From Escherichia coli (GTDB lineage Bacteria; Pseudomonadota; Gammaproteobacteria; Enterobacterales; Enterobacteriaceae), in assembly GCF_016026235.1 (NCBI RefSeq), contig NZ_CP065613.1: a stretch of 64,000 nt of DNA, one strand, 5' to 3'. The notes under the pieces are model-generated. The model searched no databases. It saw nothing but the letters and a program-made list of their open reading frames with translations, and was not told the DNA's origin. The position numbers were made by a program, and so were the translations under genes. The first letter of the stretch is position 1. Each line of letters begins with the position of its first letter. Below are positions 10,935 through 47,528 of the stretch, one piece after another.

Positions 10935-11186
10935 TGGAGCACCTCAAAAACACCATCATACACTAAATCAGTAAGTTGGCAGCATCACCCTCGTTATTAA
11001 AACTGGCGGAGAATGTGATTCGACATTCTCCACTCATACTAAACACACTGTCACTTGACGCAGGGCTGAAAGTTCTACAGCAACGGTATACCAATATGAT
11101 AATGGTTTACTAAATTTTCTGGGGATCCCTCAGGAGCAGTCCCCCACTCCGGCTTAACACGACAATCGCCTTTCAGCGAAACACAA

Positions 11187-43519: not shown

Positions 43520-44476
43520 ATGAACCCGATTGCAGTTACCCTACTCACCGGTTTTTTAGGCGCGGGAAAAACCACCCTGCTGCGCCATATTCTTAACGAA
43601 CAACACGGCTACAAGATTGCCGTGATTGAAAACGAATTCGGCGAAGTCTCCGTTGATGATCAACTAATTGGCGACCGCGCCACGCAGATCAAAACGCTGA
43701 CCAACGGCTGCATCTGCTGTTCGCGCTCCAACGAGCTGGAAGACGCACTACTCGACCTGCTGGATAATCTCGACAAGGGCAATATTCAGTTTGACCGTCT
43801 GGTCATTGAATGCACCGGCATGGCCGATCCCAGCCCGATTATTCAGACCTTTTTCTCCCATGAGATTTTATGCCAGCGTTACCTGCTGGACGGTGTGATT
43901 GCGCTGGTGGATGCGGTACATGCCGACGAGCAGATGAACCAGTTCACCATCGCTCAGTCCCAGGTTGGCTACGCCGACCGTATTCTGCTGACCAAAACCG
44001 ACGTCGCAGGCGAAGCAGAAAAACTGCGTGAACGCCTGGCGCGCATCAACGCCCGTGCACCGGTCTACACCGTCACCCACGGCGACATCGACCTGGGCCT
44101 GCTGTTCAACACCAACGGTTTTATGCTGGAAGAGAACGTCGTCAGCACCAAACCGCGTTTCCACTTTATCGCGGATAAACAAAACGATATTTCGTCGATT
44201 GTGGTGGAACTGGATTACCCGGTAGATATCAGCGAAGTTTCCCGGGTGATGGAAAACCTGCTTCTGGAATCGGCAGATAAACTGCTGCGTTACAAAGGGA
44301 TGCTGTGGATTGACGGCGAACCTAACCGCCTGCTGTTCCAGGGCGTCCAGCGCCTCTACAGCGCCGACTGGGACCGCCCGTGGGGCGATGAAAAACCGCA
44401 TAGCACAATGGTGTTTATCGGGATTCAGTTGCCGGAGGAAGAGATTCGGGCAGCGTTTGCGGGGTTGAGGAAGTAA
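43520..44476 (+). CDS. yjiA: CobW/P47K-family GTPase YjiA
   Basis: 318 aa from MNPIAVTLLTGFLGAGKTTLL; P-loop and CxCC motif. Confidence 0.9.
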   Translation: MNPIAVTLLTGFLGAGKTTLLRHILNEQHGYKIAVIENEFGEVSVDDQLIGDRATQIKTLTNGCICCSRSNELEDALLDLLDNLDKGNIQFDRLVIECTGMADPSPIIQTFFSHEILCQRYLLDGVIALVDAVHADEQMNQFTIAQSQVGYADRILLTKTDVAGEAEKLRERLARINARAPVYTVTHGDIDLGLLFNTNGFMLEENVVSTKPRFHFIADKQNDISSIVVELDYPVDISEVSRVMENLLLESADKLLRYKGMLWIDGEPNRLLFQGVQRLYSADWDRPWGDEKPHSTMVFIGIQLPEEEIRAAFAGLRK

Positions 44477-44487
44477 TTTTGGATGAT

Positions 44488-44518
44488 GGCCGCCATGGGG
44501 CGGCCTGAATTATTTTTT
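44488..44518. terminator. convergent stem-loop between yjiA and brnA
   Basis: ggccgcc-atgg-ggcggcc followed by tgaattatttttt on the plus strand. Confidence 0.4.
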
Positions 44519-44812
44519 GTTCTGATCGCGCAGCATCGCTTCACGTAAAATTGCGTTCAGGCGAGTTTGATAGCCTTTACCTGGTCGCTTCAACCATTCC
44601 ATCACATCAGCATCAATACGCACCGAAGCCTGAGTTTTCAATGGCCGATAAAACTTACCGCGTTCGGCGTTAGACCATTGCTCATCGCTGGAAGGTGGGA
44701 TATCACTGTAATCAATATCTTCGTCGGATTTATTCGCCAGCGCCTTCAGTTCGGCCTCATGCTGCACATCGAGTGTAGAGGAGGTCCCTCGTTTATGTTT
44801 AACCATGCTCAT
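44510..44812 (-). CDS. BrnA-like antitoxin (ribbon-helix-helix, COG3514-type)
   Basis: about 100 aa from MSMVKHKRG...; C-terminal SVRIDADVMEWLKRPGKGYQTRLNAILREAM is typical of BrnA; start 8 bp after the BrnT stop. Confidence 0.7.
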   Translation of the reverse strand: MSMVKHKRGTSSTLDVQHEAELKALANKSDEDIDYSDIPPSSDEQWSNAERGKFYRPLKTQASVRIDADVMEWLKRPGKGYQTRLNAILREAMLRDQNKK

Positions 44813-45086
44813 AGCGATTCCTCTCTTTACGATCTGCTTTTCGTGCACTGATGATTCGAATAATTTCATTTCCGCTTTCGAAACGGATGGTATGCGCAAC
44901 CAGAATAACCACGATGCCGTAAACCAGGCCGATTGTCTGCCAGCGATACTCACCGTTTTCTATGCGTTCTTGCTGTGACAAATGTTGTGGATCATCAAAC
45001 AATAACACCGCATCTTCAAAGCGGATGCCATGTTTCACCCGATTACTTTTGGCCTTGTTTTCATCCCATTCAAACTCCATTGGCAT
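44799..45086 (-). CDS. BrnT-like toxin (DUF497 / COG2929 ribonuclease type)
   Basis: MPMEFEWDENKAKSNRVKHGIRFEDAVLLFDDP...IRIISARKADRKERNRYE; DUF497 hallmarks FEWDxxKAxxNxxKHG and IRIISARKA; start codon uncertain (45080-45113). Confidence 0.7.
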   Translation of the reverse strand: MPMEFEWDENKAKSNRVKHGIRFEDAVLLFDDPQHLSQQERIENGEYRWQTIGLVYGIVVILVAHTIRFESGNEIIRIISARKADRKERNRYEHG

Positions 45087-45284
45087 AATTGCCATCCCTA
45101 ATTGTATATACAAAAATGTATCTACAATTATTCTGCAATTATAGCGTTGATGTTGGAAATAGCATCACGTTTCGAATAATCAACCATAAAATTGACAATG
45201 AGTAAGTTGGACTTGATTCATCCAATAGAATTTCTCGCCTGACATGGCACACTAAACACCTCGCTGTCGGGTAATGACTCCAAC

Positions 45285-45787
45285 TTACTGATAGTGTTTT
45301 ATGTTCAGATAATGCCCGATGACCTTGTCATGCAGCTCCACCGATTTTGAGAACGACAGTGACTTCCGTCCCAGCCTTGCCAGATGTTGTCTCAGATTCA
45401 GATTATGTCGCTCAATGCGCTGAGTGTAACGCTTGCTGATAACGTGCAGCTTTCCCTTCAGGCGTGATTCATACAGCGGCCAGCCATCCGTCATCTATAC
45501 TACGACCTCAAAGGCCGACAGCAGGCTCAGAAGACGCTCCAGTGTGGCCAGAGTGCGTTCACCGAAGACGTGGCCACAACCGTCCTCCGTATCCTGTCAT
45601 ACGCGTAAAACAGCCAGCGCTGACGTGATTTAGCACCGACGTAGCCCCAATGTTCGTCCATTTCAGCGCAGACAATCACATCACTGCCCGGTTGTATGCG
45701 CGAGGTTACCGACTGCGGCCTGAGTTTTTTAAGTGACGTAAAACCGTGTTGAGGCCAACGCCCATAATGCGTGCACTGGCGCGACAT
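45285..45787 (-). pseudogene. insB: IS1 insB, frameshifted and interrupted
   Basis: split into 86-aa and 69-aa ORF fragments; alignment to copy 1 shows a 1-bp deletion (cgtggccacaaccg vs cgtgcgcaacaaccg) and a stop (ctatactac). Confidence 0.7.
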
Positions 45788-45981
45788 CCGACGCCATTCA
45801 TGGCCATATCAATGATTTTCTGGTGCGTACCGGGCTGAGAGGCGGTGTAAGTGAACTGCAGTTGCCATGTTTTACGGCAATGAGAGCAGAGATAGCGCTG
45901 ATGTCCGGCAGTGCTTTTGCCGTTACGCACCACGCCTTCAGTAGCGGAGCAGGAAGCACATCTGATGGAAATGGAAGCCAC
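45706..45981 (-). CDS. insA: IS1 InsA (variant)
   Basis: 91 aa [37 protein letters not shown]. Confidence 0.8.
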
Positions 45982-46295
45982 GCAAGCACCTTAAAATCAC
46001 CATCATACACTAAATCAGTAAGTTGGCAGCATTACCAAATTTTAATTACACTTAAGGTGTATATTTTCTATGCAAGCCATCAATTAAAGAGGTGTAATGT
46101 TCTGATGACTATTTGTAATCGTTATACATTCTGACCTGGAGTCAGAAGGTATTTCTCTGTCTGTGTATTCGCAGGCAGTGTGGTTGATTACATGAAATTC
46201 AGTACATTTGTCCTTCTCGCCTGCCTTTCGTCATTACCGACGGTATTGAATTTCGTTTTCCCCATTGGGGTTCTCCGGACAAGGAGTTGTTTGTT

Positions 46296-47528
46296 ATGCC
46301 ACGTTTTTTTGCCCGCCATGCCGCCACGCTGTTTTTCCCGATGGCGTTGATTTTGTATGACTTTGCTGCGTATCTGTCGACGGACCTGATCCAGCCAGGG
46401 ATCATTAATGTGGTCCGTGATTTTAATGCCGATGTCAGTCTGGCCCCGGCTGCCGTCAGTCTCTATCTCGCTGGAGGCATGGCATTGCAGTGGCTGCTGG
46501 GGCCGCTTTCCGACAGGGTTGGCCGCAGGCCGGTGCTGATTACCGGGGCGCTAATATTTACCCTTGCCTGCGCTGCGACAATGTTCACAACGTCTATGAC
46601 ACAGTTTCTTATCGCGCGTGCAATTCAGGGCACCAGTATCTGTTTTATTGCCACCGTTGGTTATGTCACGGTGCAGGAGGCGTTCGGACAGACAAAAGGG
46701 ATCAAGTTGATGGCGATTATCACCTCCATCGTACTGATTGCGCCGATTATTGGCCCGCTTTCCGGCGCAGCTCTGATGCACTTTGTGCACTGGAAAGTCC
46801 TTTTTGCCATCATTGCGGTTATGGGTTTTATCTCATTTGTTGGCTTACTGCTGGCGATGCCAGAGACGGTGAAGCGCGGCGCGGTTCCATTTAGCGCCAA
46901 AAGCGTCTTGCGCGATTTTCGTAATGTCTTTTGCAATCGGCTGTTCCTCTTTGGCGCAGCAACCATCTCTTTAAGCTATATCCCCATGATGAGTTGGGTG
47001 GCTGTCTCGCCGGTGATCCTGATCGACGCGGGCGGCTTAACAACTTCGCAGTTCGCCTGGACACAGGTTCCGGTGTTCGGCGCGGTGATTGTCGCGAATG
47101 CCATCGTGGCGCGTTTCGTTAAAGATCCGACCGAACCGCGCTTTATCTGGCGTGCCGTACCCCTTCAACTGGTTGGCCTCGCGCTGTTGATTATCGGCAA
47201 TCTGCTGTCACCGCACGTCTGGCTGTGGTCGGTGCTGGGCACCAGTCTGTATGCTTTCGGGATTGGTTTGATTTTCCCGACCTTATTCCGCTTTACGCTG
47301 TTTTCCAATAACTTACCGAAAGGGACCGTCTCCGCATCGCTGAATATGGTGATCCTGATGGTGATGTCTGTCTCGGTCGAAATCGGCCGCTGGCTGTGGT
47401 TTAACAGCGGTCGCTTGCCGTTTCATCTGTTAGCCGTTGTGGCAGGCGTTATCGTCGTTTTCACCCTGGCCGGATTGCTTAATCGCGTGCGCCAACATCA
47501 GGCTGCCGAGCTGGCGGAGGAGCGGTGA
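46296..47528 (+). CDS. mdtM: MFS multidrug efflux transporter MdtM
   Basis: 410 aa from [27 protein letters not shown]. Confidence 0.9.

Follow-up and report, generated by a model that had tools for sequence, protein, structure and literature searches.

The immigration control region (ICR) is the textbook defense island of Escherichia coli. In the window, by which we mean the whole 64,000-nucleotide stretch of E. coli DNA analyzed here, the slot of this island holds very little between yjiA and mdtM, raising the question of whether defense genes were lost from it or never arrived and, if they were lost, which genes these were and how they went. A 2025 review for which 9,040 enterobacterial genomes were surveyed defines the ICR by its anchors yjiA and yjiN (PMC12707154), and the region is treated as a variable defense island that is remodeled by IS elements (PMC12707154; PMC3032704). 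By location, the locus in the window belongs to this region, being a slot flanked by the conserved anchors yjiA and mdtM/yjiN (anchors per PMC12707154).

Contents of the yjiA-mdtM interval

The first-pass annotation placed the yjiA stop at 44476 and the mdtM start at 46296, some 1.8 kb apart, and described the space between them as nearly empty, with only a BrnT/BrnA-like pair and an IS1. The coordinates are correct (44477-46295, 1,819 bp), and Pfam and NCBIfam matches, together with the open reading frames, bear out the contents as an intact brnT-brnA operon and a 767-bp IS1 only. The features of the locus and its flanks are as follows:

43520-44476, plus strand: yjiA, GTPase, left anchor gene of the ICR (NCBIfam PRK11537, 680 bits versus a cutoff of 361)
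44488-44505, between the convergent yjiA and brnA: GC-rich hairpin with a 7-bp stem and a 4-nt loop, then a T-run, probably a terminator (consensus scan only)
44510-44812, minus strand: brnA antitoxin, 100 aa, ORF intact (Pfam PF14384, E = 3.1e-17, model positions 1-68 of 68)
44799-45086, minus strand: brnT ribonuclease toxin, 95 aa, ORF intact (Pfam PF04365, E = 4.7e-24, model positions 1-77 of 77)
45087-45269, no strand: AT-rich spacer, 183 bp, 35.5% GC (collinear with loci L003, L004 and L013 up to 45269)
45270-46036, minus strand: IS1 of the IS1F type, 767 bp (identity to K-12 IS1F; ORF analysis; NCBIfam transpos_IS1 on three ORF fragments)
46037-46295, plus strand: native upstream DNA of mdtM, 259 bp, including a ytiE-like mini-ORF (blastn against K-12, ST131, E20 and 2014C-3075; alignment)
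46296-47528, plus strand: mdtM, MFS efflux pump, intact, on the right side of the island (NCBIfam MdtM equivalog, 855 bits versus a cutoff of 700)

No restriction-modification or type IV restriction genes were found in 44477-46295, and an Rfam scan of 44300-46500 returned nothing above chance (a sub-threshold match to drz-agam-1, E = 0.28). Judged by its gene content, the locus would today be without any restriction function, and a corresponding restriction phenotype is predicted. A candidate -35-like TTGGCA from a consensus scan lies at 46023, in the IS1 end facing mdtM, and through it the IS1 end might influence mdtM transcription.

The brnT gene lies upstream of brnA, overlaps it by 14 nt and, like brnA, is free of internal stops, so that the two form a two-gene, toxin-first operon. 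Pfam matches both proteins, whereas neither NCBIfam nor PADLOC has a model that matched BrnT or BrnA. Window brnA has zero codon differences from loci L001 and L010, which carry the PGAP-annotated BrnA (WP_000063156.1). Among structures, BrnT matched PDB 7VD7, a solved close homologue, at E = 4e-52. The pair resembles BrnT/BrnA of Brucella abortus in having both Pfam domains at full length and overlapping genes in a toxin-first operon, although window BrnT is only distantly similar to the Brucella toxin itself (3U97, E = 1.6e-4). This type II toxin-antitoxin operon is apparently functional, its activity being a prediction from sequence. Matches to brnTA were obtained in 2,112 of 5,426 complete E. 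coli genomes (at least 80% query coverage in only 1,780), once per chromosome and with one match on a plasmid, and in every locus inspected brnTA adjoins yjiA. The review names brnAT as one of three ICR toxin-antitoxin systems, the others being symE-symR and rpn (PMC12707154).

In size, the IS1 beside brnT agrees with its family (~768 bp, with terminal inverted repeats of roughly 23 bp). Both terminal inverted repeats are intact, and the outermost 30 nt at each end are identical to K-12 IS1F. Intact are insA (45706-45981) and the A6C frameshift motif, but two lesions divide insB into the segments 45527-45787 and 45285-45494: a 1-nt deletion, common to every sampled locus of the form found in the window (type 1, defined below), and a TGG-to-stop change that is also present in the K-12 insB7 pseudogene of K-12 IS1F. 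With this deletion and premature stop, no functional insA-insB (InsAB') product can be encoded, and PGAP labels the same IS1 copy in other genomes as “frameshifted; internal stop”. Its earlier description as degenerate is right in that insB is broken, but overstates the decay, as the element is 98.96% identical to K-12 IS1F (90.7% to IS1A). We predict that the copy is non-autonomous with usable ends, an IS1 family member by descent only. No target duplication of 8-11 bp was found: the flanking 9-mers, TCGCTGTCG on the left and AAATTTTAA on the right, are unrelated, in agreement with the first reading of the sequence. The copy is identical to that of FDAARGOS_943, and private to these two is a Pro-to-Ala change at insA codon 9 (window 45957), within the first CxxC zinc-finger motif (RCPSCS to RCASCS).

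A second IS1, of the IS1A type, 768 bp long and with insA and insB ORFs intact, is located at 10222-10989 between lplA and deoD. It too is without a target duplication (CGAATTACC versus CTCGTTATT), making it unsuitable as a positive control for such duplications, and is probably another IS1-associated deletion. FDAARGOS_943 carries ISEc60 in place of this IS1, and K-12 presumably has yjjJ/hipH at the lplA-deoD site.

The block missing beside brnT

In K-12 MG1655, 19,389 bp separate the yjiA stop from the mdtM start, in line with the roughly 20 kb given by the first-pass annotation, and the anchors are not adjacent there; the interval holds mrr, hsdRMS, symE, mcrBC, yjiV, yjiT, yjiS, yjiR and rpnD. 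By blastn, homology between the window and K-12 runs exactly to the yjiA stop codon and begins again at 46036/46037, 271 bp upstream of K-12 mdtM. As had been supposed, 46037-46295 matches the K-12 sequence upstream of mdtM, with one 11-bp indel. The K-12 ICR (mrr-hsdRMS-symE-mcrBC-yjiVTSR-rpnD) thus shares with the window its chromosomal slot and the mdtM upstream DNA from -271, but differs in lacking brnAT and is a separate 19.4-kb cassette. Since K-12 is without brnTA, its island was not the parent of the window's arrangement, and the supposition that a K-12-type island (mrr-hsdRMS-symE-mcrBC) had been lost does not stand; the parent was another ICR allele, one bearing brnAT.

Fuller alleles of this kind occur in ST131 strain 4993, E20 and 2014C-3075, where the gene order is yjiA-brnA-brnT-Mrr-like REase-hsdM-hsdS-hsdR-symE-yjiS-yjiR-rpn-mdtM. 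The Mrr-like type IV REase of these alleles has 388 aa and a GTG start (PADLOC mREase_IV / PDC-S02). They resemble the window in their anchors, in the position of brnAT beside yjiA and in the sequences upstream of brnT and mdtM, at 96-98% identity, but keep the Mrr-like REase, hsdMSR, symE, yjiS, yjiR and rpn where the window has IS1. On the left, the window is collinear with the full alleles through 45269, 14 bp before the REase start codon; on the right, the alignment restarts at 46036/46037, 259 bp before mdtM, with 46037-46295 being the mdtM-proximal portion of the rpn-mdtM intergenic region. In 2014C-3075 (locus L013), window positions 45269 and 46036/7 correspond to 14012 and 25372/3, and the segment between these breakpoints comprises 11.36 kb and eight genes. 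Both IS1 ends coincide to the base with the loss of collinearity against this intact relative, the mark by which a scar was recognized. In each of the full alleles L003, L004 and L013, the missing block forms one uninterrupted segment; it includes yjiS, yjiR and rpn, which are conserved framework genes of the ICR (PMC4498929). Of these, yjiR occurs in 3,760 of the 5,426 complete E. coli genomes, which favors its loss from the window. In brnTA, present-day full alleles differ from the window by 1.4-3%, and the true parent is therefore unsampled.

The AT-rich spacer left of IS1 is what remains of the intergenic region that separates the divergent brnT and Mrr-like REase genes. Within it, at 45201-45211, lies an 11-mer (AGTAAGTTGGA; expected count in shuffles, 0) whose sequence equals the core of the IS1 terminal repeat. 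It stands 59 bp beyond the IS1 boundary and is inverted with respect to the near-end repeat. It is also present in full alleles without this IS1, and is thus older than the insertion. Perhaps an IS1 end once lay here and left it behind, or else the 11-mer mimics such an end and thereby draws IS1 in. Two further observations concern the full alleles themselves. In the ST131 strain 4993 island, an independent IS1A truncates hsdR (L003 25045-26248), showing that IS1 damage to the island is recurrent. In others, brnT is partly deleted with brnA intact (L013 13728-13829 in 2014C-3075, plus about 330 other genomes), as is usual for toxin-antitoxin pairs, in which the toxin gene decays first.

Probable origin of the scar

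We are confident that a single old IS1-associated deletion, within a brnAT-bearing ICR allele, left this interval as its scar. The IS1 sits exactly, to the base at both termini, where eight genes are missing, it has no target duplication, and framework genes were lost, which together argue for an IS-associated deletion and against an empty ancestral site, as the first-pass annotation had proposed. From this anatomy we infer the following order of events. A parental allele would have carried yjiA, brnA-brnT, the Mrr-like type IV REase, hsdM-hsdS-hsdR (type I), symE, yjiS, yjiR, rpn and mdtM. An IS1F-type element would then have come to sit 14 bp upstream of the REase start codon, and the DNA from this IS1 to 259 bp upstream of mdtM (11.36 kb and eight genes in the intact relative) would have been lost, leaving a single IS1 between non-duplicated flanks. 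This DNA could have been removed by an adjacent deletion during intramolecular IS1 transposition, or two IS1 copies in the same orientation could have recombined, with an identical product. Later, the IS1 transposase would have been lost through the insB 1-nt deletion, on top of a stop codon also found in K-12 IS1F, with the ends kept, and the haplotype would afterwards have been inherited and spread by recombination. That all sampled type-1 copies share the insB 1-nt deletion points to a single origin.

In a classical IS1 adjacent deletion, the IS1 is kept at the breakpoint, no target duplication is present, and one end of the deletion is fixed while the other varies. The window's locus shares the retained IS1 at the breakpoint, the missing duplication and the fixed and variable ends, a process recorded here by its end product alone, and deletion by IS1 transposition specifically may have been the route. 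A pre-deletion intermediate (this IS1 with a target duplication and the REase gene still adjacent) was sought with a query joining the IS1 left-end repeat, the 9-bp duplication and the REase start (...GCAGCATTACC + TCGCTGTCG + TTAAGGGATTACCGTG), and was found in 0 of the 5,426 complete genomes. The only match to this query, in Ec-91, was rejected as a different IS1 located ~200 bp inside the REase gene. The intermediate was also found on none of the metagenome contigs, a weak negative in that the positive control, the brnT-IS1 left junction, was itself recovered on only 16 gut-metagenome contigs.

How this strain came to carry the scar is a separate matter from how the scar arose. It is quite possible, if somewhat short of likely, that a ready-made short cassette was imported into this strain by homologous recombination of flanking DNA. 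Both E24377A- and NCTC86-like backgrounds carry the haplotype, whose internal diversity reaches 0.7%, the mdtM of a sister haplotype (type 2, below) is only 95.8% identical to that of the window, suggesting a mosaic history, and the ICR has been described as a high-recombination region and a “bastion of polymorphism” (PMC12707154; PMC4498929). However, such an import bears on how the strain obtained the scar and not on the origin of the scar, and vertical inheritance is equally possible.

Far less probable is ancestral absence, whereby yjiA-brnTA-mdtM would be a primitive empty site into which IS1 inserted, with the cargo of fuller alleles gained later. Such a history would accord with the lack of yjiR in 1,666 of 5,426 complete E. 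coli genomes and with a passage of the review, citing Sibley and Raleigh 2004, in which E. coli C is historically described as having an “empty” ICR (PMC12707154). Yet a simple IS1 insertion is expected to leave a duplication of 8-11 bp, and there is none here; the IS1 flanks match full alleles to the base, although they stand 11.36 kb apart there; the left flank retains the upstream region of the REase gene to position -14; and gain of the cargo would have required precise replacement of the IS1. Nor does E. coli C (NCTC122) resemble the window at this point, as none of its matches spans the brnT-IS1 junction and the best covers the IS1 half of the query only. A collapse of the assembly across IS1 copies, with the island really present, can be excluded: despite the second IS1 at 10222-10989 and the more than 40 IS1-matching places in the closest relative, complete genomes from many laboratories show the same junctions (450 the exact form, 1,112 the left one), metagenome contigs independently carry the left junction, and the IS1 beside brnT is an IS1F-type pseudogene in its own right, sharing only 90.8% identity with the second copy and having a private insB 1-nt deletion in all type-1 loci sampled.

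Distribution, a sister haplotype and significance

Reduction of the hot spot had first been ascribed to this strain. The short locus is real, but it is not strain-specific: the brnT-IS1 left junction is present in 1,112 of the 5,426 complete E. coli genomes (a collection from which the window's own genome is absent), and the window's exact right junction, which defines type 1, in 450 of them, including E24377A and NCTC86. The scar is old; its exact form occurs in roughly 8% of complete E. coli genomes, and both forms together in roughly 20%. E24377A (NC_009801.1), NCTC86, FDAARGOS_943 and ~450 others match the window exactly in gene order, in the two IS1 junctions and in the insB 1-nt deletion, and the loci of these three named strains differ from it by point differences only (99.25-99.8% identity over 2.4 kb). 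The closest complete genome is FDAARGOS_943 (99.8% identity over 24 kb). Its mdtM is frameshifted by an 8-bp insertion (L010 6380-7620), while that of the window is intact.

Type 2, found in about 550-630 complete genomes, has the same left junction and an IS1 that is about 99.1-99.4% identical to that of the window, with its transposase intact in SCU-122. On the right, the IS1 is directly followed by a 273-bp duplicate that comprises the 3′ end of yghX, the spacer between yghX and yghW, and codons 1-18 of yghW; this duplicate is joined in frame to mdtM codon 9 at a 7-bp microhomology (CATGCCG) to give yghW'-'mdtM. These genomes also retain their native yghX-yghW copy at another place. The fusion, seen at L005 4889-5161 (CP051714) and L008, reads MNNHFGKGLMAGLKATHA followed by 13 mdtM-side residues and is called plain mdtM. 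Capture of yghX-yghW would let the promoter and start codon of yghW direct mdtM expression, and the pattern looks like homology-facilitated illegitimate recombination with IS1 as the homologous arm. A donor for the patch, with IS1 in native yghX at the exact patch boundary, was not found; the IS1 of STK78-E lies ~58 bp away.

A fixed left junction with a variable right junction is the pattern expected if the IS1 end beside brnT acts as an anchor. One could accordingly imagine this IS1 as a long-lived anchor from which the mdtM side was rebuilt repeatedly, first by the 11-kb deletion and then by the yghX-yghW capture, with BrnTA addiction shielding the yjiA edge; we consider this unlikely. Were it true, both forms would be selected variants (restriction loss, altered mdtM control) and not neutral debris. 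Metagenome contigs L026 and L029 showed a third right flank, but proved unusable as evidence: the flank is a fimbrial-gene site that carries IS1A in 360 complete genomes and lies ~20 kb from brnTA in Z0117EC0005, and the junction reflects either an assembler that passed through the repeat or two IS1 copies that recombined to invert the DNA between them.

Documented natural ICRs without restriction genes are those of E. coli C, Crooks and W, the Crooks version being attributed to IS insertions (PMC3032704; PMC12707154). The window resembles these in being a natural ICR without hsd, mcrBC and mrr, and differs from the E. coli W region, which carries pac (Archer et al. 2011, PMC3032704), as it does from E. 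coli C at the brnT-IS1 junction. PGAP already annotates the BrnA, BrnT, IS1 pseudogene and mdtM of the present arrangement in hundreds of RefSeq genomes; the arrangement is already known, and there is nothing new in the window's version of it. Mildly new side points are the fixed left and variable right IS1 junctions and the common sister haplotype with its chimeric yghW'-'mdtM, the latter being the sole item that may merit a short follow-up. For the rest, the gain is mainly one of correct annotation. The island's type I and type IV restriction genes are gone from this strain, as they are from roughly one in five sequenced E. coli, a fact that may serve as background when restriction barriers, DNA uptake and phage sensitivity are predicted from genomes.
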